Under the pieces are notes generated by a model. It saw nothing but the letters and a program-made list of their open reading frames with translations, ran no database searches and had not been told where the DNA came from. This document shows, one piece after another, positions 11,670 to 59,382 of a DNA stretch of 64,000 bases; within the stretch, counting starts at the first letter, position 1; every line of letters begins with the position of its first letter. The stretch comes from Candidatus Shapirobacteria bacterium. GTDB taxonomy: Bacteria > Patescibacteriota > Microgenomatia > UBA12405. The stretch spans positions 693 to 64,692 of the forward strand of contig JAQWFB010000002.1 of assembly GCA_028704635.1 (NCBI GenBank), in the 5' to 3' direction. A program made the position numbers and the translations under genes.

Positions 11670-13688
11670 ATGAAGTCCCTTACTAAGCCAATCCATTTTT
11701 TGTTTTTGGCTCTTGTTTTTTTTACTCCTTTTATTTTCACCCAATCAAATTCTGAGCTTTTTGAATTACCAAAAATGTATTTCGTTTATCTTTTAACCAC
11801 TTTAATAACTACCTTTCATTTAATTAATGTTATCCAAAAAAAAGCTCCTTTTCGCAAAAAAACCTTTTTAGATATTCCCATTCTTCTCTTTTTTATTTCC
11901 CAAGTAATTTCCACTTATTATTCCATTGACCCCCATACTTCTTTTTTCGGTTACTACTCTCGTCTTAATGGCGGTCTTTTATCATTGATTTGTTATCTTC
12001 TTCTCTATTTTATTTTATCCGTTTATATTGACTCAGATTTTAAAAATAAAATTATTAATTTTTCCCTACTTTCGGCATTTTTAGTTTCAATTTATGCCAT
12101 TGCCGAACATTTTGGTATTGATAAAAATTTATGGGTTCAAGACGTCCAATCACGAGTTTTTTCCACTCTTGGTCAACCAAATTGGCTCGCCGCTTATCTT
12201 TGTATTTTTATTCCCTTTTCTATTTTCAAATTTTTTGAATCAATTAAAATTGATTTTGATAAATCCAACAAATTGTACGGGCGAATCATGATTCGCCCCT
12301 ACCTATATTTAATATTAACTTTAATATTTTACATTTCTCTTCTTTTTACTAAATCCAAATCCGGTATCATCGCCTGCCTCATTTCTCTGGCTATTTATTT
12401 TGCAGTTTCTTTTTTTAAAAACAAACCCTTCAGGAAATTATTAATTCTTAATTATTCATTATTAATTATTCTTTCACTTTTAATCACCAATCCCATTAAA
12501 GATAGTTTTATTTCTTTTATAAAAACCAGACATATCGTACCTATAGTCGTAGAAGATAAAATTCCATCATCAAAAATCTTAATAACTTCTAGTGGTGATA
12601 TCCGCAAAATTGTTTGGACGGGAGCCATTGATCTTTGGAAAAAATTCCCCATTTTTGGCACCGGAGTTGAAACTTTCGCCTATTCCTATTACTGGACCCG
12701 CCCAGTCGAACACAACCTCACTTCTGAATGGGATTATCTCTACAACAAAGCCCACAATGAATATATTAATTATCTCGCCACCACCGGCACAGTCGGCTTT
12801 ACTACCTATTGCTTTTTCATCATCTCCGTTTTATTTTTCTCATTAAAGTCTCCCTTGTCAAAGGGAAATTTAGAGGGATTGAATTTAGTCGTCCTGGCCA
12901 GCTTTTCCAGCATATTAATAACTAATTTTGCCGGTTTTTCAGTTGTTACCACTTCGCTCTTCTTCTTTCTTCTCCCCACCCTTTTAAATCCAGATCAGGA
13001 AATTAAAGTAGAGACGTTGCATACAACGTCTCTACGTAAATTTTTAGTTATCCCAATAATTATCATCAGTTTATTCCTAATTAAAAAAACAATTTTCTTT
13101 TACATCGCCGACATCGCCTACAATCAATCCGAAAAATACGATTCTCAAAATGATTATCAAACTGCTCTTTCTTTCGCTCAAACTAGCCATCAACTAAATC
13201 CAAGCGAACCGCTCTACATTGACAAATTAGCCACTATTTACTCAAAAATTGCTCTAAACACCGGCAAACAAGAATATATCGACCAAGCCATCGATTATTC
13301 CGATCTAACCATAAAAATCTCCCCTGCCAACATTAATTTTTGGAAACAACGCGCCCAAGATTATCTTTACCTCTCCGGCATTGATACTAAATATTTCTCT
13401 GTTTCTATCACCGCTCTAACCAACGCCGCCAGTCTCGCTCCCACTGATCCTAAAATTTTCTATTCCCTTGGCCAATTTTTAGAAACAGCCAGTCTTACAG
13501 ACCAAGCCATTCCTTATTACCAAAAAGCCATTGAATTAAAATCAAATTATGATTATGCCTATTTCGCTCTCGGCAAAATTTATCTTTCCAAAAAAGAAAA
13601 AGCGTTAGCCAAAGAAAATCTCCAAAAAACCATTGATTATTCCTATCCCACCAACACTGAAGCAGAAAAATTACTGAAAAGTCTTTAA
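11670..13688 (+). CDS. O-antigen ligase (Wzy_C) family polytopic membrane protein fused to C-terminal TPR repeats. Contains three in-frame short repeat insertions
   Basis: Multiple TM helices, NEYINYLATTG-type Wzy_C loop. C-terminal TPR-like (AIPYYQKAIELKSNYDYAYFALGKIY). Confidence 0.75.
   Translation: MKSLTKPIHFLFLALVFFTPFIFTQSNSELFELPKMYFVYLLTTLITTFHLINVIQKKAPFRKKTFLDIPILLFFISQVISTYYSIDPHTSFFGYYSRLNGGLLSLICYLLLYFILSVYIDSDFKNKIINFSLLSAFLVSIYAIAEHFGIDKNLWVQDVQSRVFSTLGQPNWLAAYLCIFIPFSIFKFFESIKIDFDKSNKLYGRIMIRPYLYLILTLIFYISLLFTKSKSGIIACLISLAIYFAVSFFKNKPFRKLLILNYSLLIILSLLITNPIKDSFISFIKTRHIVPIVVEDKIPSSKILITSSGDIRKIVWTGAIDLWKKFPIFGTGVETFAYSYYWTRPVEHNLTSEWDYLYNKAHNEYINYLATTGTVGFTTYCFFIISVLFFSLKSPLSKGNLEGLNLVVLASFSSILITNFAGFSVVTTSLFFFLLPTLLNPDQEIKVETLHTTSLRKFLVIPIIIISLFLIKKTIFFYIADIAYNQSEKYDSQNDYQTALSFAQTSHQLNPSEPLYIDKLATIYSKIALNTGKQEYIDQAIDYSDLTIKISPANINFWKQRAQDYLYLSGIDTKYFSVSITALTNAASLAPTDPKIFYSLGQFLETASLTDQAIPYYQKAIELKSNYDYAYFALGKIYLSKKEKALAKENLQKTIDYSYPTNTEAEKLLKSL
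12275..12303 (-). repeat. REP-like GC-rich palindrome copy (ggtaggggcgaatcatgattcgcccgtac), inserted in-frame in the ligase gene (encodes YGRIMIRPY)
   Basis: Identical core to 59094-59117 and near-identical to 59011-59035 and 23783-23808. Confidence 0.8.
12847..12880 (+). repeat. Short repeat agtctcccttgtcaaaggga..agagggatt, in-frame inside ligase gene. Second copy at 48531-48589
   Basis: 20/20 identical core plus shared agagggatt tail seen directly. Confidence 0.7.
13008..13035 (+). repeat. Palindrome gtagagacgttg-cata-caacgtctctac in-frame inside ligase gene (encodes KVETLHTTSLR). Related copy at 37540-37569
   Basis: 12-bp perfect inverted arms. Shares 11-nt arm with 37540 copy. Confidence 0.75.
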
Positions 13689-14234: not shown

Positions 14235-14288
14235 ACGCTATTTTATCAAATTAACTTTATAAACTTGACGAACTTGATAAACTTACTC

Positions 14289-15167
14289 ATGGTTAATCTC
14301 ATTTTCTTCGGCTCATCAGAATATTCTCTTATTATTCTTAAAAAAATTCTTGAAATTAAAGACTTTAATTTATTGGCCATCGTCACTAAACCAGACAAGG
14401 CTGCCGGTCGAAATCAAGAAATAACTGCCAATCCTGTGGCCGATTTCGCTCGCCAAAATAATTTAGATCTTCTTCAACCTCAAGATTTTGATCAAGAATT
14501 TATTAACAAATTTAAAGAATTAAAACCAGATCTTGTTATCGTCGTCGCCTATGGCCCCCCCTATTTCAATCAAGAAATGATTGACACTCCCCAATTTAAA
14601 GTTGTAAATATTCATCCATCTCCATTACCAAAATATCGCGGTGCCACCCCCGGCCCTTGGCAAATTATCAATGGTGAAACTAAAACAGCTGTTTCTTTTT
14701 TTCAAATCGATGCTCTTCCTGATCATGGCCCCATCATTTCTCAAATTCCTTTTGACATCAGTCCTATCGAAACCGCCACCAGCTTTTATCAAAAAGCTTT
14801 TAACCTCGCCGCCAATAATCTAGAGACAGTTATTAAAAAATATATCTACGATCTACAATCTACAACCCACTCTCTAATCCCGCAGGATCACACCCAAAAA
14901 ACCTATTTCCCAAAATTTACCAAAGACAGTGCTCAAATTGATTGGTCTTGGGATATTTCTAAAATTGAACGTTTTATCAGAGCTCTCAACCCTTGGCCAA
15001 TTGCCTGGACTTTTGTCACTAATCAACAATCTCAAAAAATCAAAATGAAAATACTATCCGCCTCAACCACTAATCAACAATTAATTCCCAACACTGTCCA
15101 AATCGAAGGTAAAAAAATCGTCAACTGGTCCGAAATTTGCAAATATTACACTATAAATAAAAACTAA
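14289..15167 (+). CDS. fmt: Methionyl-tRNA formyltransferase (start moved to internal ATG 14289 to avoid overlap with def)
   Basis: Formyl-transferase N-domain IFFGSS...VNIHPSPLPKYRGATP. def-fmt pairing. Confidence 0.85.
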   Translation: MVNLIFFGSSEYSLIILKKILEIKDFNLLAIVTKPDKAAGRNQEITANPVADFARQNNLDLLQPQDFDQEFINKFKELKPDLVIVVAYGPPYFNQEMIDTPQFKVVNIHPSPLPKYRGATPGPWQIINGETKTAVSFFQIDALPDHGPIISQIPFDISPIETATSFYQKAFNLAANNLETVIKKYIYDLQSTTHSLIPQDHTQKTYFPKFTKDSAQIDWSWDISKIERFIRALNPWPIAWTFVTNQQSQKIKMKILSASTTNQQLIPNTVQIEGKKIVNWSEICKYYTINKN

Positions 15168-18269: not shown

Positions 18270-18342
18270 GCCTGAGTAGCTCAGTCGGTAGAGCAACTCT
18301 CTTGTAAAGAGTAGGTCGTGAGTTCGAATCCCACCTCAGGCT
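18270..18342 (+). tRNA. tRNA-Thr (anticodon TGT)
   Basis: Cloverleaf folded by hand: acceptor GCCTGAG, anticodon loop CTTGTAA, T-loop TTCGAAT. Confidence 0.85.
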
Positions 18343-18377
18343 CATTTTTTATTAATATTTTGGTAAAATATCAGCAC

Positions 18378-18450
18378 GCCCGGATAGCTCAGTTGGTAGA
18401 GCATCCCCTTGGTAAGGGGAAGGTCATGAATTCGAGTTTCATTCCGGGCT
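18378..18450 (+). tRNA. tRNA-Thr (anticodon GGT)
   Basis: Acceptor GCCCGGA/TCCGGGC, anticodon loop TTGGTAA. Confidence 0.85.
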
Positions 18451-18548
18451 CAATACAGTTATAAAGTTTGTCAAGTTTTTAAAGTTGTAAAGTTGTTTTA
18501 AATTTTAGCTTGATGAACTTGATAAACTTTTGACTTTATAAACTCAAT

Positions 18549-18632
18549 TGGAGGGGTGCTCCGAATGGTAAGGAACTTGTTTTGAAAACAAGCGTCAGCA
18601 ATGACATGCAGGTTCGACTCCTGTCCCCTCCG
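18549..18632 (+). tRNA. tRNA-Ser (anticodon TGA), long variable arm
   Basis: Acceptor GGAGGGG/CCCCTCC, anticodon loop TTTGAAA, 17-nt variable arm, T-loop TTCGACT. Confidence 0.8.
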
Positions 18633-23536: not shown

Positions 23537-23586
23537 ATCCACACCTTATACTTGATAAACTTGATAAACTTGATAAACTATCTGTC

Positions 23587-29060: not shown

Positions 29061-29131
29061 CAGGTCCGCCAGGAGTCGAACCTGGAAAAGCAGTTTTGGA
29101 GACTGCTGTGATACCATTTCACCACAGACCT
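29061..29131 (-). tRNA. tRNA-Trp (anticodon CCA)
   Basis: Hand-folded: acceptor AGGTCTG/CGGACCT (one G-U), anticodon loop CTCCAAA, T-arm CCAGG-TTCGACT-CCTGG. Confidence 0.75.
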
Positions 29132-29143
29132 AAGAACGAAAAG

Positions 29144-29216
29144 TGGACCCAAGGGGACTCGAACCCCTGACCTTCCCCATGCCATGGGGACGCGCTACCA
29201 ACTACGCTATGGGCCC
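29144..29216 (-). tRNA. tRNA-Ala (anticodon GGC) with G3-U70
   Basis: Acceptor GGGCCCA/TGGGTCC giving G3:U70 identity pair. Anticodon loop ATGGCAT. T-loop TTCGAGT. Confidence 0.75.
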
Positions 29217-29299: not shown

Positions 29300-30184
29300 A
29301 TGACTAATATTTCAAAGGCCGTCATTGCTGCCGCTGGCCGAGGCACTCGTTTTCTTCCTGTCGTTAAATCTTATCCCAAAGAATTGGTTCCAATTCTAGA
29401 TAAACCAAATATTCAATATCTTGTCGAAGAAGCTATTGGTGCTGGTATTACTGATATCGCCATTATCCATAGATTAGGCGAAAGTTCAATCGAAAAATAT
29501 TTCTCCCCCGATCAAGACCTAGAAGATTATTTGATCAGTAGAAATAAAACTGAATATTTAGACAGTTTAAAAAATATTTGGCAAAAAGCTAAACTAACTT
29601 TCATCCCTCAATCAGCTGACCTTCCCTATGGCAACGGCTCCCCTATTTTAGCCGCAAAAGATTTTATTGGTTCCGATAATTTTGTTTACATGTTTGGTGA
29701 CGATCTCATCGTTGAAGAAACTTATGGCCAATATTTAACCAAAATGATCACTTCTCTTGAAGAATACAATTCCGACGCTGTCGTTTCTACTCAAGAAATG
29801 CCAACTGAAGAAATGAAACGTTACGGTGCTGTTGTTCCTCACACCAACCCTACCGTTCCCCACCAAATCAGTGCTTTGCTCGAAAAAACTGACCCACCTC
29901 CATCTAATTTTGCTGTTGTTGGTCGTTATGTTATCTCTAATAAAATTTTAGATGTTATTAAAACCCAAGGCACCACCAAAGACAATGAACTTTGGCTGGC
30001 CGATGCGTTAAACACTATGGCTCAAAATGGCGTCGTCGTCGATGAACCAATCACTAATGGTGTTTGGATGACCACTGGTGATCCTCTTCGCTGGCTCGAA
30101 GCCAACATCGCCGTCGCTATCAAAGATCCCAGACTTAAAGACGATTTAAAAGAATTTTTAACAAATTTAGATGTCAATAAATAA
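29300..30184 (+). CDS. galU: UTP--glucose-1-phosphate uridylyltransferase (GalU-type), copy 1
   Basis: AVIAAAGRGTRFLPVVKSYPKELVPILDKPNIQYLVEE matches GalU signature. Confidence 0.8.
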   Translation: MTNISKAVIAAAGRGTRFLPVVKSYPKELVPILDKPNIQYLVEEAIGAGITDIAIIHRLGESSIEKYFSPDQDLEDYLISRNKTEYLDSLKNIWQKAKLTFIPQSADLPYGNGSPILAAKDFIGSDNFVYMFGDDLIVEETYGQYLTKMITSLEEYNSDAVVSTQEMPTEEMKRYGAVVPHTNPTVPHQISALLEKTDPPPSNFAVVGRYVISNKILDVIKTQGTTKDNELWLADALNTMAQNGVVVDEPITNGVWMTTGDPLRWLEANIAVAIKDPRLKDDLKEFLTNLDVNK

Positions 30185-31046
30185 AGCTGTTATCGCCGCT
30201 GCTGGTCGAGGTACTCGTTTTTTGCCTGTAGTTAAGGCTTACCCAAAAGAATTAGTTCCAGTTCTTTCTAAACCAAATATTCAATATTTAGTTGAAGAAG
30301 CCATTGGTGCTGGTATTACCAACATTGCCATTGTTATTCACTTCGGCGAAAAAAAGATTCAAAATTACTTTTCCAAAGATGCCAATTTAGAAAAATATTT
30401 AATTGAAAACAATAAAACTGAATATCTCGACAGTCTAAAAAATATTTGGCAAAAAGCTAAAATAACTTTTATTGAACAGCCTTTAGACTTACCTTATGGC
30501 ACTGGTTCCCCTGTTTTAGCCGCCAAAGAATTCATCGGTAATGATGATTTTGCCTATTTTTATGGTGATGATTTTATTCTTGAACCAACTCCTGGTCAAT
30601 TATTATCGAAAATGATTTCTAAATACGACCAATACCAAGCCTCCGCTATTCTGGCCGTTCAAAAAGTTCCCATGGAAGAAATTTATCGCTTTGGTAGTAT
30701 TAAATATATTAACGACCCTGTCTATCCGGATCGCATGTCCGAGATTATGGAAAAACTCCCAGCCGATCAAGCCCCATCCAATTCAGTCAATATCGGCCGC
30801 TTCATTGCTTCAAATAAAATTTTAGAAAATATCGATATTAAAAAACTCTCTAGGGACAACGAATTATGGTTCACCGACGCTCTAACTAAATTAGCTCAAT
30901 CAGGAATTGTTCTTACTCAAGCCACTCAAGATGAACAATGGCTCACCACTGGCGATCCCCTTCGCTGGCTTAAAGCCAATATCAGTACTGCTCTTCAAAA
31001 CCCTCAATACAAAAAAGATATTTCTGAGTTCATAAAAACACTATAA
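30171..31046 (+). CDS. galU: UTP--glucose-1-phosphate uridylyltransferase paralog, copy 2 (about 60% identical to copy 1)
   Basis: Same signature (AVIAAAGRGTRFLPVVKAYPKELVPVLSKPNIQYLVEE). Overlaps copy 1 by 14 nt. Confidence 0.8.
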   Translation: MSINKAVIAAAGRGTRFLPVVKAYPKELVPVLSKPNIQYLVEEAIGAGITNIAIVIHFGEKKIQNYFSKDANLEKYLIENNKTEYLDSLKNIWQKAKITFIEQPLDLPYGTGSPVLAAKEFIGNDDFAYFYGDDFILEPTPGQLLSKMISKYDQYQASAILAVQKVPMEEIYRFGSIKYINDPVYPDRMSEIMEKLPADQAPSNSVNIGRFIASNKILENIDIKKLSRDNELWFTDALTKLAQSGIVLTQATQDEQWLTTGDPLRWLKANISTALQNPQYKKDISEFIKTL

Positions 31047-31212
31047 AGAACCTTTTTTCAGGAAACACCTTCAATATAAAGCTTTAATTCAAACTGACTA
31101 CACACTCGATAAGTATTTTTATACAAACCAAAAACTCCTATAACTAATCTATTACTGATACTTAAATGAATAAAATACCTTATTTGTGCCTAATTTTAAA
31201 ACAACCTACTAC

Positions 31213-31241
31213 TTGACATAGACCTATAATAACATTATAAT
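31213..31241 (+). promoter_or_regulatory. Consensus sigma70-type promoter TTGACA-N17-TATAAT
   Basis: TTGACA 31213-31218, TATAAT 31236-31241, exactly 17-nt spacer. Confidence 0.5.
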
Positions 31242-31247
31242 ACCTAT

Positions 31248-31474
31248 AGAATTAATAAAATAATTCGCACTTTTATAAAAAGCCAAATTGTTCAAAGGAG
31301 AGATTTGGAGTGTGGCTCCTCTAGAGTTTCGCACCCCGTTTCTCCTTTGAACAATTTAAATTCAAAGGAGAGATTCAGAGTGCGCCTGTCCTGATTTATT
31401 AGGAATTCCTCGTCTCACCCCGTTTCTCCTTTGAATTTAAAATAGAAAAGCCCCGCAGATGCGGGGCTTTTTTG
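31248..31474 (+). ncRNA. Candidate structured ncRNA / tandem cis-regulatory element: two related hairpin modules (P1 caaaggagaga...tttctcctttgaa) followed by intrinsic terminator
   Basis: Module A 31289-31357, module B about 31362-31435. Shared gagtg..gc..c(a)ccccg internal motif. Promoter and terminator bracket it. No coding potential. Confidence 0.35.
31445..31474 (+). terminator. Intrinsic terminator aaagccccgcagatgcggggctttttt
   Basis: 8-bp GC stem, 6 T. Confidence 0.75.
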
Positions 31475-31485
31475 ATGTATTCCAA

Positions 31486-31519
31486 ACTTGACATTATCCT
31501 ATAACAATGACATACTATA
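31486..31519 (+). promoter_or_regulatory. Promoter with conserved spacer motif aacTTGACAttatcctataacaatga, copy 1 (upstream of 31655 gene)
   Basis: 29/31-nt identity with 32571-32601 including -35 and entire spacer. Confidence 0.45.
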
Positions 31520-31654
31520 TCACTTTTTAGTAAAGCACTAAAAAAGTTTTCGTTCTTTAATAATCCGTAAAAAACTTAAAATCAAAAACAATTCAGAGAA
31601 ATCTGTTTAAATAAAATCGTCAAATAAGTATAAAAAATGAAAGGGTGAGTTAGA

Positions 31655-32467
31655 ATGACAAATAAAAAAAGTTTAATGTTATTGGTTTTTTTGTTCTTTT
31701 CGATGTTGATGTTAACACCTCCAGCTTCTGCTCAAATTATTGAGAATGGCAACAGTTATTACTATCAACAATCAAACAACTACAACAGTCAATTTTGGCA
31801 AAAGGAGTACGAATCATATTTCTACCCTGGTTTAGGGCACAAAGAATATGAAGTCCTATACCAAAACGGCTACCGAACAAACACAACCCGATATACCGGT
31901 TTGTATGTCTTTTTACCAAACGAATCCGTGATGAATCAATATGGTGTAACCACTATTATTGAATACAAATCCGGATATGACTCTTATTTCACTCCAAATA
32001 AAGGACATAAACAGTACATTGAAAAATGGGTAAATGGCACCAAAACAAATGATATCCCTGTCTATACCGGTAACTATATTATCTTACCGAATGAGACAAT
32101 TGATTCAATTTACAGAGAACCCTGTAGTAACAACTCTGATCTTTATTTAAACACCACAAACATTCCATTAACTAAAGGATTGAGCGGCTGTAATATCTAC
32201 TACCTAGAAACTGGTAATAAGACTACTACTATACACGCAGAAGTTCCATATGGTTACTCTCTAATTGTCGCCGGAGTAACAGTTGATAATACTAATGGTG
32301 GAGTCTACAAAACATTTTCTACAGGTAATAGAACAGTAAAAATTAAAAACGGATTCGCCATAATTATCAGCAACGACGACCTTTACAACGAATTCCAAGC
32401 CAGAGTCAAAATCGCCAGAAACAATAACTGGAAATGTTCACACATTACATGGCCAAACCAATATTAA
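31655..32467 (+). CDS. Secreted hypothetical protein with signal peptide and two internal Tyr/Asn-rich repeats
   Basis: Signal peptide ending PPASAQ. Internal repeat YFYPGLGHKEYEVLYQNGYRTNT.. / YFTPNKGHKQYIEKWVNGTKTND.. Confidence 0.6.
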   Translation: MTNKKSLMLLVFLFFSMLMLTPPASAQIIENGNSYYYQQSNNYNSQFWQKEYESYFYPGLGHKEYEVLYQNGYRTNTTRYTGLYVFLPNESVMNQYGVTTIIEYKSGYDSYFTPNKGHKQYIEKWVNGTKTNDIPVYTGNYIILPNETIDSIYREPCSNNSDLYLNTTNIPLTKGLSGCNIYYLETGNKTTTIHAEVPYGYSLIVAGVTVDNTNGGVYKTFSTGNRTVKIKNGFAIIISNDDLYNEFQARVKIARNNNWKCSHITWPNQY

Positions 32468-32487
32468 AATTTAAGTTTTGCACGGAC

Positions 32488-32546
32488 CGGGCCCTATAAG
32501 TTATTTTTTGAATCATCATTGATTCACAAATTTAACTTACAGGGCC
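32488..32546 (+). terminator. Long inverted repeat (gggccctataagtta ... taacttacagggcc) after secreted-protein gene
   Basis: About 14-bp arms with about 30-nt loop. No strong T-run. Confidence 0.35.
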
Positions 32547-32570
32547 TTTATCATTTTAATTAATATAATA

Positions 32571-32601
32571 ACTTGACTTTATCCTATAACAATGATAAAA
32601 T
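32571..32601 (+). promoter_or_regulatory. Promoter with conserved spacer motif aacTTGACTttatcctataacaatgaTAAAAT, copy 2 (upstream of 32805 gene)
   Basis: TTGACT-N17-TAAAAT. Spacer identical to copy 1. Confidence 0.45.
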
Positions 32602-32804
32602 CCGGCACTTATCAATAAAGCATTGATTAAGTATGTTCTTTAAAAATCAGTATCCAAAATTCCTTTTAAAATTTGTTTTAAGTCCATTCTAATGGGCAAC
32701 ATTTTGTCTATCATCACATCGATGATAAGCAGAATGTTACCCATTAGAGCGGGATAACAACGTTGCAAACGTAAACAAAACAAAATTAAGAGGAGGAATT
32801 AAGA

Positions 32805-33560
32805 ATGAGCGAAACAAATGAACCTTTAGCAGAGGAAAACCAGGTAAAACCCAAAAAGTGGTGGAAAATTATTGGCATTGTAACATTAATCGCAATAATT
32901 GCATTAATGCTATGGCAAAGCCAACCCTGGTCAAAAGAATCTAAAGAAACAACTATTAATGGCGACTTACACGTCACCGGCAATCTCGTCGTCGACAAAA
33001 ACGTCGAAGTCAAAGACACAATTACCGCAAAAAAAGTTGTGGCTCTTGAAGAAATTAAAACACCAATCATCAAAGCAGATGTTGGAGAAATTTCCCATGT
33101 TAAGGCAAATGTAGTGGATTCTATTATAGTAAATGCCGAAACAATCAATGCCAACACGGCCAATATTCAGGTTGTAAATGCTGGAAAAGTTAATACTGGA
33201 AGTAATATTTCTAGTGTTACTGTTCAACCAGTACAACCAGTCGAGAAGCCAGTTGAACAAACAGGTTCAGGCAGTGAAAACTCTTTTACTTCCGGTGATC
33301 CCCAATGGAACACAGGTGTAGGAGTTACCAAAACTGTCACTCTAAATGTGAGTCCTGGTAAAACCGCTGTTGTTGGTGGCTACACCGTTAATGGCGTTAA
33401 AGGATCATTAAAGATCTACCAGCCTGGAACTTACCAATTGACAATTTGTGACGGATTTATCCGTGACAATGTCGATCCTGCCAACAGCCAGTCAACCTAT
33501 CAAATGAAAAAAGATGAGGCTGCTCGATTAGGACAAGACATTTCCAACGCCCAAAACTAA
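32805..33560 (+). CDS. Membrane-anchored surface protein with beta-strand-rich repeat region (bactofilin/fibre-like), strong SD
   Basis: N-terminal TM WWKIIGIVTLIAIIALMLW. V/N/T-rich alternating repeats. RBS aagaggagg. Confidence 0.55.
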   Translation: MSETNEPLAEENQVKPKKWWKIIGIVTLIAIIALMLWQSQPWSKESKETTINGDLHVTGNLVVDKNVEVKDTITAKKVVALEEIKTPIIKADVGEISHVKANVVDSIIVNAETINANTANIQVVNAGKVNTGSNISSVTVQPVQPVEKPVEQTGSGSENSFTSGDPQWNTGVGVTKTVTLNVSPGKTAVVGGYTVNGVKGSLKIYQPGTYQLTICDGFIRDNVDPANSQSTYQMKKDEAARLGQDISNAQN

Positions 33561-37539: not shown

Positions 37540-37569
37540 TGTAGAGACGTTCTGCAGAACGTCTCTACA
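37540..37569. repeat. Perfect palindrome tgtagagacgttc-tgca-gaacgtctctaca. Same family as 13008-13035
   Basis: 13-bp perfect arms. Shared gtagagacgtt core. Confidence 0.75.
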
Positions 37570-37578
37570 TTTCAAAAA

Positions 37579-42599: not shown

Positions 42600-43472
42600 T
42601 CATTTACACAAAGGGCACTTATCACCAGAATAATAACAATCACATTTTTCACAATGTTTCAAACCATCAACATTTCCTAGTCCGTAAACCAACTCTCCAT
42701 TTATACCCACTGACACAATTATTCCCATTCTATTATTTTCACTTCCCCAAGAACTTCCATGCCCCCCTTCAGTATTAATTTCATTCCCCATTCTTGCCAT
42801 TAAGCTTTCAAATAAATAATTATCACCATCTGCTCTTTCCATGGCCATTCTTACATCTTTTTCCATTTTTATTTTATTTTCAGTATCCTTACCTTCCTCA
42901 ATAAAATCCCAAATTTCCATAAACTCAGGCATTATTTTTTTACATTCATATATCCAATCATCAATCTCTTCAATCCTAAATCCTATCGGTTGTTGCCTTA
43001 CGCTTTCCTTATTATTAATTGAACCTATAGATTTTCCATTATTTTTTAACAATCTCTTAGCCAATTCAAACGATTCATTTTCATCACAAAGCAAGGGAAC
43101 ATGTCTCCCATAAACCACCCATTCATTTTTTCCAAAAACAGGAAATTCTATATTCAATCTTCCCTCTTTGTAAACATTTCCACCATCATCAGGACTTATC
43201 CAAACAATCAAATTGTATCCCTTTTTACCTAAATCAAAAACATTAATTGTTGCTTCTTTTTCTGCTTCTGAATGTTTATTATATTCCCAATTATCTTTTT
43301 CTATTTTACTTTCTACATAAAGATCTGAAATATTTATTCTATTTCTTAAATCTAAATCATTAGCCCTCTCCTCCAAAAACGCTCCTGCAATTTCACTAAG
43401 AGAATTTTGATTAATATCGTAAAACTTTTTATTTTCTAAATTCATATACTTTTGCTCGAAAGTTTTGGTCAT
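42600..43472 (-). CDS. Hypothetical protein with C-terminal zinc ribbon (HCEKCDCYYSGDKCPLC), last gene of nrd operon
   Basis: 290 aa ORF. CxxC...CxxC terminus. Co-directional with nrdJ and ATR gene. Confidence 0.5.
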   Translation of the reverse strand: MTKTFEQKYMNLENKKFYDINQNSLSEIAGAFLEERANDLDLRNRINISDLYVESKIEKDNWEYNKHSEAEKEATINVFDLGKKGYNLIVWISPDDGGNVYKEGRLNIEFPVFGKNEWVVYGRHVPLLCDENESFELAKRLLKNNGKSIGSINNKESVRQQPIGFRIEEIDDWIYECKKIMPEFMEIWDFIEEGKDTENKIKMEKDVRMAMERADGDNYLFESLMARMGNEINTEGGHGSSWGSENNRMGIIVSVGINGELVYGLGNVDGLKHCEKCDCYYSGDKCPLCK

Positions 43473-43534
43473 CCGGCTCTACGGTTGCGGCACAGCCTAG
43501 GAATTACACCTAGTTCCCCATTAATAATTATTTT

Positions 43535-44035
43535 TTAATTAAACTTTGACCTCCACATCCAATTTAAAAAGGATGATAATTTATTAAAATATTTCAATAC
43601 ATTTTCATCAAATTTCTCTTTTTTCTTTTCTTCTCTATCCCATTTTAAAGTCACCACCCTCCTTTCCGCTTCTCGACAATCAGTTCGACAAATATTAATT
43701 CTCGATTCAACTTCATTTTCACCAGGTATTAAAAAATCGTTTAAATCCTTAACTCTTTTTTCATATTCTTCCGAATCACTTTCTATTTCTTCAATTCTTT
43801 TCTCTCCGTTTTTCCAATCTTTACCAACATAAAGACTACTCATAATTTCATTTAAATCTTTTTCTATTTGAAGAATTTTTTCATTTTCTTCTTTTTCCTC
43901 TATCACCACTCTAGTCCACCCCAACCGGGCCTGAAACTTATCAATCGCTCCAACTGCTTCCACAAAAGGAGAATCTTTACTCACACTTAAATTGCATTCT
44001 CCTGATGTAAAACCTTTATCTCCTCTTTCACTCAT
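43535..44035 (-). CDS. PduO-type ATP:cob(I)alamin adenosyltransferase (MMAB family)
   Basis: N-terminus RGDKGFTSG...VSKDSPFVEAVGAIDKFQARLG matches TGDKGxTSL..VxKDDxRVEAxGxxDELN signature. Confidence 0.6.
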   Translation of the reverse strand: MSERGDKGFTSGECNLSVSKDSPFVEAVGAIDKFQARLGWTRVVIEEKEENEKILQIEKDLNEIMSSLYVGKDWKNGEKRIEEIESDSEEYEKRVKDLNDFLIPGENEVESRINICRTDCREAERRVVTLKWDREEKKKEKFDENVLKYFNKLSSFLNWMWRSKFN

Positions 44036-58398: not shown

Positions 58399-58797
58399 AT
58401 GTCAGAAGAAAAAAAAGTAAGCGCAAAAATTGAAAAAATAATCGATTCTGTTGCTGAATTAACCGTTATTGAGCTTTCCGAATTAGTTAAAGCTCTTGAA
58501 GAAAAATTTGATGTCAAAGCTGTTGCCGCTGCTGCTCCTGTAGCTGCTGCTGGTGCTGCCGCTGCTGCTCCTGTAGCTGAAGAGAAAAACGAATTTGATG
58601 TCGTTATCACTTCTGCTGGCGCTAACAAAATTGCCGTCATCAAAGCTGTTAGAGAATTTAAACCAGAACTTGGCCTTAAAGAAGCTAAAGACATGGTCGA
58701 TGCTTGTCCAGCCAACCTTGGTACTATGAAAAAAGATGCTGCTAATGATGCTAAAGCAAAATTAGAAGCCGCTGGTGCTCAAGTTGAATTAAAATAA
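58399..58797 (+). CDS. rplL: 50S ribosomal protein L7/L12
   Basis: Ala-rich hinge and C-terminal domain [11 protein letters not shown]...LKEAKDMV. Confidence 0.9.
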
Positions 58798-59010: not shown

Positions 59011-59035
59011 GTAGGGGCGATTCATGAATCGCCCC
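59011..59035 (+). repeat. REP-like palindrome gtaggggcgattcatgaatcgcccc (inside transposase remnant)
   Basis: Perfect 11-bp arms. Confidence 0.8.
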
Positions 59036-59093
59036 ATTTAAAACATCGACATCATTAATATTAATTTCATTATTTATTTTTTCATTCATTTTG

Positions 59094-59117
59094 GGCGAAT
59101 CATGATTCGCCCCTACA
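59094..59117 (-). repeat. REP-like palindrome gtaggggcgaatcatgattcgccc in inverted orientation to 59011 copy (REP doublet)
   Basis: Identical to 12275-12303 copy. Confidence 0.8.
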
Positions 59118-59382
59118 ATTTTAATGATCATATGCAAATGGTCTGGCATAATTTGATAACCATCGATTTTAACGTCAAAACGATTTATTAAATTTAATAA
59201 CCAAATTTTACATACCAACCATTTTTATTTAAATCCATTTTTCCATTTTCAATTTCCCCAAATATTTCATTTCGATTTTGCACACAAATCGTTACAAAAT
59301 AATATCCATTTTTTGAATAATCAAACCCATCCAATCTAATCGATATTCTGTGATATTTCACACATTAATGATATCAAAAAAT

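Follow-up and report, generated by a model that had tools for sequence, protein, structure and literature searches.

What lies between a tandem pair of galU paralogs and a group of exported-protein genes in Candidatus Shapirobacteria? We addressed this question in a 64-kb stretch of contig JAQWFB010000002.1 (the window), in which the original prediction had placed a candidate noncoding RNA at 31213-31474, with a consensus promoter, two related hairpin modules and an intrinsic terminator. A search of related genomes, combined with covariance models, revealed that promoter, 5' hairpin, modules and terminator are kept as a unit, with covarying stems, at about 40 separate loci from Shapirobacteria, Woesebacteria and related Patescibacteria, to which the family is confined as far as sampled, and that each genome carries a single locus. 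These results support the small RNA (sRNA) among the options first considered, and we regard it as highly likely that the locus is a real structured sRNA gene; it very probably represents a genuine sRNA family of Microgenomates-type Patescibacteria that had not been described before. What the in silico results establish is the gene architecture, the structure, its conservation, the strand and the single-copy synteny. Taken as a whole, the reading towards which we lean, with somewhat more confidence than doubt, is an independently transcribed sRNA of about 226 nucleotides (nt) that belongs to a new family, binds a conserved partner through its modules and acts in trans.

A conserved promoter and terminator delimit the unit

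The unit comprises the following elements on the + strand, with promoter, terminator and location between the galU paralogs and the exported-protein genes all as originally described.

31213-31241, + strand: sigma-70-type promoter TTGACA-N17-TATAAT (TTGACA 31213-31218, 17-nt spacer, TATAAT 31236-31241), matching the consensus at 12 of 12 positions
31248-31473, + strand: predicted sRNA transcript, about 226 nt, starting 7 nt past the -10 box and ending within the U-tract
31249-31266, + strand: 5' leader hairpin GAAUUA-AUAAAA-UAAUUC, from fold and alignment, followed by the conserved single-stranded segment CGCACUUUUAUAAAAAG
31285-31357, + strand: module 1, type M1, with an outer covarying stem (31285-31293/31349-31357) and an invariant core (31297-31345, GGAGAGAUUUGGAGUGUGGCUCCUCUAGAGUUUCGCACCCCGUUUCUCC)
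31358-31438, + strand: module 2, type M2, with helices P1 and P2 as in M1 and a core at 31367-31429
31446-31473, + strand: strong intrinsic terminator AAAA-GCCCCGC-AGAU-GCGGGGC-UUUUUU, with hairpin and T6 at 31450-31473

The promoter is the sole 12/12 consensus match within 30000-33000. Promoter-like sites as a class are not enriched in this interval (13 seen, 12.1 expected), so the weight of this promoter rests on its conservation in relatives: TTGAC(A)-N16-18-TAnAAT was found in all 35 loci with complete upstream sequence, and almost all loci carry a conserved CCTATAAT inside the spacer. At the other end, a GC-rich hairpin followed by a T-run occupies the terminator position in 34 of the 36 loci with complete downstream sequence, so that an own promoter and an own intrinsic terminator are conserved as a unit, as expected of an sRNA gene.

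The RNA from this interval (31248-31474, + strand) has a predicted fold of -94 kcal/mol compared to -47 ± 4 kcal/mol in shuffled sequences (z = -11.5). Its 5' leader hairpin is present in most loci with altered sequence and maintained pairing (GAGUUAAU..AUUAACUU, GAAUUAUU..AAUAAUUC), including G.U pairs in relatives (GGAUUA/UAAUUC, GAAUUG/UAAUUC), and is missing from the short-leader loci L035, L042 and L044. An A/U-rich stretch separates this hairpin from the first module.

Two module types share invariant helices within covarying stems

The window contains exactly two copies of each shared module end, TTCAAAGGAGAGATT and CCCCGTTTCTCCTTTGAA, and only at this locus; for the shared 18-mer end 0.09 chance matches are expected, and none of 100 shuffles reaches two. 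The two related hairpins of the original prediction were thus recovered, as were their outer stems, which are longer than described (in module 1, AAATTGTTCAAAGGAGAGAT pairs with GTTTCTCCTTTGAACAATTT over about 20 base pairs without a break). The divergent middles, which had been taken for a covariation-like pattern between the two copies, proved to be a misreading: M1, with a 49-nt core, and M2, with a core of 63-64 nt, are two types that are each conserved across genomes, and the real covariation lies between genomes rather than between the two modules of the window.

Among 29 distinct M1 sequences, all nine pairs of the outer stem were changed on both sides, giving a covariation score of 0.230 compared to 0.084 in shuffles (0 of 500 reached it), and 91.6% of the outer-stem cells were paired, compared to 34-53% with slid partners. 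The 22 inner pairs were essentially invariant across the same sequences and, because they never vary, the core helices give no structural evidence either way. More than half of the M1 matches (56 of 91) carry the 49-nt core GGAGAGAUUUGGAGUGUGGCUCCUCUAGAGUUUCGCACCCCGyUUCUCC; M1b, a variant of one lineage, was also seen, as were a few cores with single substitutions. M2 shares the two basal helices of M1, and in place of the apical part of M1 it has, in the window, an inner hairpin (31389-31404, UCCUGA-UUUA-UUAGGA) and an unpaired AUUCCUC; across M2 copies the unpaired apical 7-mer is mostly GCUCCUC. This inner hairpin also covaries (UCCCGC/GCGGGA, UCCCGA/UCGGGA, UCCGCC/GGCGGA, three pairs changed on both sides) among seven distinct M2 sequences (eight if one that differs solely in the last flank base is counted), for which RNAalifold gives nine pairs with compensatory changes. 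Compensatory changes, the hallmark of a structured RNA, are therefore found in both the outer stem and the M2 inner hairpin.

The core itself forms a very stable rod (about -24 kcal/mol when folded alone). Its first helix is polypurine/polypyrimidine, pairing AAAGGAGAGA with UUUCUCCUUU, and is followed by a 2-nt bulge and a second helix pairing GAGUGYG with CG..CACCC. In this second helix one mismatch, A27.C53, is invariant, and positions 25 and 55, a non-canonical pair, change together, being G-C in M1a, A.A in M1b and L046, and A.C, U.U or U.C in M2. The apical part exposes a CU-rich stretch that contains CUC and reads GCUCCUC in most copies. Modules within one RNA have different outer stems (e.g. 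UUGUUC/GAACAA and AAAUUC/GAAUUU), which would enforce local folding of each.

Two results bear on the strand. An M1 covariance model scored module 1 at 99.9 bits on the + strand compared to 34.5 bits on the - strand, and the core pairs include four invariant G.U pairs but only one invariant A.C, a pairing asymmetry that favours an RNA from the + strand.

We also asked whether the modules could carry tiny ORFs. As originally reported, the region lacks an ORF: none of at least 40 amino acids lies between the stop of the galU paralog (31046) and the start of the exported-protein gene (31655), and ORFs of 20-36 amino acids within this interval are not conserved across loci. M1 nevertheless reads as a Shine-Dalgarno (SD) sequence (AAAGGAGAGA), 9 nt, and GTG TGG CTC CTC TAG (MWLL), and M2 of the window contains GTG CGC CTG TCC TGA (MRLS). 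The only two substitutions in the M1 mini-ORF, CTC to CTT in L042 and TAG to TAA in L027, are synonymous and stop to stop, respectively, which would fit coding. However, the SD and start codon are locked in helices, a 20-amino-acid frame across M1 has no start codon in many loci, and the other M2 copies read through at least 19 codons, leaving MWLL without an M2 counterpart and hence no mini-ORF conserved. A carrier of tiny ORFs, or alternatively an array of guide RNAs or antitoxin RNAs of the kinds compared below, is thus a very unlikely description of the locus.

The gene occupies one syntenic locus per genome

Pattern scans yielded 14 stretches from species-representative genomes (185,579 species) and 38 from metagenome contigs; removal of GC-rich chance matches left about 40 distinct loci, labelled Shapirobacteria, Woesebacteria or Patescibacteria. 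In the scan of species genomes each metagenome-assembled genome (MAG) had one sRNA locus, including one with a 735-kb contig, and neither the window nor about 300 kb of sequence from related loci contained further module copies. Some sRNA-bearing MAGs are labelled Gammaproteobacteria, and these few labels are probably wrong. Complete loci contain one module in seven cases and two in 20; L020 shows three, which lie on either side of an assembly gap, and L064, with the same sequence, has two.

The usual site has the tandem galU paralogs on one side and, on the other, a variable set of genes for zinc-ribbon or exported proteins together with those for a family-2 glycosyltransferase and a large membrane protein; in L042 and L044 the sRNA is located elsewhere. 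Promoter, modules and terminator are all kept in loci whose galU homologues are 92%, 88% and 78% identical to that of the window. Within most loci the M1 core is 98-100% identical to the core of the window, compared to 70-77% for adjacent galU DNA and 65-80% for the leader, an invariance demonstrated at the positions that the search patterns left free, as well as in L002, L003, L008 and L064, loci recovered by synteny through their proteins rather than by pattern. Core identity is lower in the M1b lineage (L025, 88%) and in L046 (94%).

Several side observations concern the same neighbourhood. The two tandem galU-like NTP-transferase paralogs of the window (29300-31046) are 76% identical in DNA over a 290-nt repeat (D1) and overlap by 14 nt, an arrangement kept in most relatives. 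The second of them (30171-31046) is also encoded on JAQUJG010000011 (GCA_028681165.1), and its close homologues are annotated Candidatus Shapirobacteria. In many relatives (L011, L018, L020, L028, L030, L031, L038, L049, L055) the first gene past the sRNA starts with a zinc ribbon (CxxC...CxxC) rather than a signal peptide, and gene content between sRNA and glycosyltransferase is hypervariable.

Single-copy synteny bears directly on whether the repeats act as DNA. The long near-perfect inverted repeats, their patchy occurrence among close relatives and the variable genes just downstream could suggest a selfish or DNA-level element, such as a pair of miniature inverted-repeat transposable elements (MITEs), a recombination or attachment site, or an operator palindrome. 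The MITE-like repeat pair, one of the options raised originally, is refuted by the finding of one syntenic locus per MAG with no dispersed copies, and the modules belong to a single-copy unit whose stems covary rather than to multicopy repeats without covariation. In addition, sRNA matches were absent from the viral contig, phage and plasmid collections searched, the spacing of the arms (29 nt in M1, 43-44 nt in M2) is hard to fit to a dimeric DNA binder, the pairing asymmetry points to + strand RNA, and conserved promoter and terminator bracket the repeats. We consider any such element the least probable of the explanations weighed here, with next to no weight.

Terminator and neighbours in relation to a cis-acting leader

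A second option from the original prediction was a tandem riboswitch-like regulator, in which the modules would be ligand or protein sensors controlling terminator read-through into the cell-envelope genes, namely those for the exported proteins, the glycosyltransferase and the 877-amino-acid membrane protein. Consistent with this option, the next gene is co-directional in most loci, the galU paralogs and the envelope genes continue to flank the RNA, near-invariant cores are typical of aptamers, and the sRNA of L042 lies beside genes that we take, by eye, to be rmlB and rmlC, encoding dTDP-sugar enzymes. However, no Rfam riboswitch class matched the region. The terminator stems covary freely and are unrelated between loci (GCCGC, CCCCAC, GCCCC, UCUCGC, CGGCAAC), in contrast to the invariant modules, and inspection therefore gave no evident sign of a conserved anti-terminator pairing; an A-rich linker of 15-25 nt separates the last module from the terminator; perfect stems of 20 base pairs make poor switches; and the neighbouring gene is convergent in L008 and L042. 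Finally, the downstream gene has its own promoter right after the terminator, which marks the 3' boundary of the sRNA unit:

31488-31516, + strand: separate promoter of the exported-protein gene 31655-32467, matching the consensus at 10 of 12 positions, with a TG extension

This promoter is duplicated ahead of a paralog (32805-33560) that has no sRNA. Together these results make a cis-acting leader quite improbable.

The duplication itself covers promoter and 5' untranslated region (31485-31547 and 32570-32632, repeat D7), consisting of AACTTGAC-N4-TATCCTATAACAATGA followed by a covarying hairpin with an AAAGC loop, and precedes both paralogous exported-protein genes. Another motif of 5' untranslated regions, GTTCTTTAAnAATCCGTAAAA, recurs ahead of downstream genes in relatives.

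Conservation also extends about 170 nt upstream of the sRNA promoter in related loci:

31099-31200, no strand assigned: conserved ORF-free region upstream of the promoter, from an alignment of 33 loci, with blocks TACACAC..GATAAGTATTTTTATA, CCTATAACTAAT and TTATTTGTGCCTAATTT

A second RNA or a small ORF was ruled out for this region (structure z = +0.9, no conserved ORF), and judged from sequence the blocks are probably DNA-level regulatory sites. A CCTATAA motif recurs at about -120, within the promoter spacer and just past the terminator beside the next promoter; a transcription-factor site and a promoter element particular to the lineage are both possible readings.

Partner binding and base pairing as candidate mechanisms

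We propose that a near-consensus sigma-70 promoter would drive synthesis of an RNA consisting of a 5' hairpin, an A/U-rich single strand, one to three autonomous rod-like modules and an intrinsic terminator. In each module the outer stem of about 9 base pairs, whose sequence is free and whose pairing is required, would keep folding local, and the module would act as one self-contained site to which a conserved macromolecular partner binds; the sRNA as a whole would then work in trans as a multivalent decoy or scaffold. The partner could be an RNA-binding protein or the ribosome, the latter being considered because the core resembles an SD/anti-SD duplex. The 20-base-pair outer stems would be substrates for RNase III, and cutting there could plausibly release the modules as hairpins of about 55-75 nt.

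What points to partner binding is a combination of two helices that are invariant on both strands, a conserved 2-nt bulge and mismatches, an apex that is exchangeable between the M1 loop and the branched M2 form, a variable number of modules, and pairing clamps of free sequence. In known ribonucleoproteins such conservation is a sign of binding by a protein or the ribosome and not of a seed, and because the pattern resembles such sites a multivalent decoy or scaffold is favoured. As the mechanism specifically, the partner-binding module is a tentative proposal to which we give somewhat less than an even chance.

The main rival is a base-pairing sRNA in which the GCUCCUC stretch, and possibly the CACCCC strand, are anti-SD seeds that would occlude the ribosome-binding sites of the minority of mRNAs with SD sequences, for example those of the neighbouring exported-protein genes, with several modules providing several seeds; by analogy it would work like RsaE/RoxS, LhrC or the streptococcal csRNAs. 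In accord with this proposal, an invariant CUC lies in a CU-rich stretch that is unpaired in the models and common to both module types (the apical loop of M1, the 3' internal loop of M2), strong SD sequences precede the adjacent exported-protein genes (GAAAGGGUGAG at 31655 and AAGAGGAGGAAUU at 32805), AGAGGAG would pair with loop CUCCUCU over 7 base pairs as read from the sequence, and the gene stands alone with a strong promoter and terminator. Yet invariance covers both strands of two helices, which a seed does not require; two M2 variants read GCAACUC instead of GCUCCUC; CACCCC and UUUCUCCUUU are buried in the stable rod; and the window contains no target of extended complementarity, since a search with complements of loop and core returned only the antisense of the sRNA itself and weak sites at chance level. 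Because downstream genes differ between loci and all have generic GAAAGGAG-type SD sequences, co-variation of sRNA and cognate ribosome-binding site cannot be shown. We therefore regard base pairing as possible, with a lower probability than partner binding.

A further alternative is that Patescibacteria have, in the invariant 49-nt core, a functional RNA fold of a new kind rather than one more regulatory hairpin, either a mimic of the SD/anti-SD duplex or a new aptamer or self-cleaving motif, which we view as doubtful and less probable again than base pairing. As a mimic, the core would imitate the SD/anti-SD duplex and the 3' tail of 16S rRNA and would dock on 30S subunits, a factor that processes the 16S 3' end or an SD-binding factor, in bacteria whose mRNAs appear to be mostly leaderless; as a switch, it might alternate between GAG:CUC and GAG:CCC pairing. 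The string CACCCCGUUUCU matches at 10 of 12 positions what we take to be the canonical 16S sequence, CACCUCCUUUCU, a general form rather than that of this organism. The core is built of SD-like (AAAGGAGAGA, GGAGUG) and anti-SD-like (GCUCCUC, CACCCC, UUUCUCCUUU) strings and most long ORFs in the window have no SD sequence, which lends some weight to both the anti-SD role and the ribosome mimic.

The SD usage of the window is a separate observation. Most ORFs of at least 150 amino acids have no SD sequence, and in many a TATAAT-like box precedes the ATG by 5-20 nt, a placement that suggests mRNAs with a very short leader or none; among the few genes with an SD sequence are the exported-protein genes adjoining the sRNA.

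Several points weigh against partner binding by a trans-acting sRNA. The CU-rich loop and C-rich strand fit a base-pairing sRNA equally well. No recognisable RNA-binding protein is encoded in the neighbourhood, where four of the eight scanned proteins have no Pfam family. The sRNA promoter and transcript ends, like any processing, are predicted. About 23 core positions (GGAGAG, GAGTG, CACCC, TTCTCC) were preset by the search patterns, and variation there would be invisible. Lastly, relatives with galU 64-81% identical (L005, L006/7, L062, L063, L065) have no sRNA at the syntenic site, and a covariance model run with filters off found no divergent copies in L005, L006, L062, L063 or L065, the matches of at most 27 bits being AT-rich hairpins. 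The family is thus patchy and therefore not an essential housekeeping RNA.

The family nonetheless offers clear gene boundaries, a usable covariance model and a core conserved beyond the flanking protein genes, making it a concrete handle on post-transcriptional or ribonucleoprotein biology in Patescibacteria, which are uncultivated organisms with reduced genomes. The sRNA is located in a cell-surface/glycosylation locus, and such genes are generally thought to be central to the episymbiotic lifestyle of Patescibacteria. If the core does mimic an SD/anti-SD helix, it would bear on how translation initiation is organised in a lineage where many mRNAs, judged from the window, appear to have no SD sequence.

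Other features of the window

Elsewhere in the window, an AdoCbl-II (cobalamin) riboswitch aptamer was identified at 43458-43535 on the - strand (43.9 bits, gathering threshold 36.5), and five tRNA genes form two clusters (18270-18632, + strand; 29061-29216, - strand). GC content is about 33%, and GC skew of the + strand is strong and uniformly negative (-0.1 to -0.5 per 2 kb) except at about 18-20 kb. A CTTGATAAACTTGATAAACTT-like motif is repeated (D2/D6) at 745-802, 14242-14299, 18509-18544 and 23538-23582, with one copy beside a tRNA cluster. Near-identical GC-rich palindromes, GGGCGAATCATGATTCGCCC and GTAGAGACGTT..AACGTCTCTAC (D15, I8, I17), recur at 12270-12302, 59015-59038 and 59093-59121 and at 13005-13035 and 37541-37571, and are probably shared terminator hairpins, judging by their letters. 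Short tandem repeats of 15-18 nt, TGCTGCCGCTGCTGCTCCTGTAGCTG (D14), occupy 58521-58579.

Comparison with known RNA families

A scan of 31100-31660 against Rfam 15 returned no family at the gathering threshold. The best sub-threshold matches (E up to 10), BTnc231 (45.5 bits, threshold 80.4) and Leu_leader (36, threshold 50), were driven by generic hairpins and the terminator. In the literature on noncoding RNA in Patescibacteria, Microgenomates and the Candidate Phyla Radiation we found no described sRNA, and only TIGR-Tas was relevant.

TIGR-Tas arrays consist of tandem stem-loops with variable palindromic stems around conserved motifs, occur in Patescibacteria and are processed from a precursor (PMC12045711), a likeness that would favour a guide array here. 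They are defined by an adjacent Nop-domain protein, Tas, and by units in which box C/D-like motifs flank two variable spacers (PMC12045711). In contrast, the modules described here have an invariant interior, number only one to three, and have neither variable spacers nor box C/D-like CCA/UG pairs, and no Nop-domain family was found among the eight neighbour proteins; a TIGR-Tas array was rejected on these grounds. A type III toxin-antitoxin RNA (ToxI-like) and a retron msr-msd were likewise rejected, as no ToxN/AbiQ or reverse transcriptase family was found among these neighbours. The downstream proteins are signal-peptide or zinc-ribbon proteins without Pfam matches.

Two resemblances of individual motifs were also set aside. 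The M2 sequence CUCCUCGCUG resembles L3 of the hepatitis delta virus (HDV) ribozyme, a likeness that was dropped because the helices come in an order that does not fit and Rfam gave no match to an HDV-like model. The palindromic loop CUCUAGAG was rejected as a site for kissing dimers because the palindrome is not preserved in CUCUAAAG, CUUUAGAG and CUCUAGGU, its variants.

Correia/NEMIS, RUP and BOX elements are MITE-type transcribed hairpins. Like them, the modules form hairpin rods of about 70-90 nt, with long and nearly perfect stems that RNase III would cut if they were transcribed; unlike them, the modules have a single syntenic locus, their own promoter and terminator, a core under purifying selection and stem ends that covary.

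BTnc231 (RF04180) of Bacteroides thetaiotaomicron, which appears in the literature only in transcriptome catalogues, likewise has two hairpins and a terminator, a similar size and an SD-like/anti-SD-like second hairpin. Its purine and pyrimidine strands are in reversed order, however, and the match is structural and generic rather than one of sequence homology. RsaE/RoxS (RF01820), LhrC and the streptococcal csRNAs are also small terminator-ended sRNAs with repeated pyrimidine-rich motifs against ribosome-binding sites and variable copy number. They differ in that here only one of three CU-rich elements is unpaired (the stretch that is mostly GCUCCUC, in both module types, with CACCCC and UUUCUCCUUU paired), the whole helix is invariant and the phylum is a different one; at 22.6 bits, compared to a gathering threshold of 79, the sRNA is not a member of RF01820, although it may act in a similar way.

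The closest parallels to the proposed mechanism are multivalent protein-binding sRNAs and conserved-helix ribonucleoproteins, such as the CsrB/RsmZ sponges, the Ro-binding stem of Y RNA and domain IV of the signal recognition particle (SRP) RNA. The comparison implies no link to CsrA, Ro or Ffh, and a CsrA sponge in particular is not indicated: CsrB/RsmZ display GGA motifs in loops, whereas here GGA sits inside helices, that of AAAGGAGAG lying within the invariant P1 helix and the second (UUGGAGUG) being lost in M1b and M2 (CAGAGUG), and the Rfam scores for rsmX (30.7, threshold 56) and RsmY (19.3, threshold 57) were far below threshold and due to the terminator only. What the new family has in common with CsrB/RsmZ, Y RNA and SRP domain IV is a stand-alone RNA, predicted here to be strongly expressed, with repeated or discrete modules in variable number, in which a sequence-conserved helix with a bulge and mismatches is flanked by freely covarying stems.

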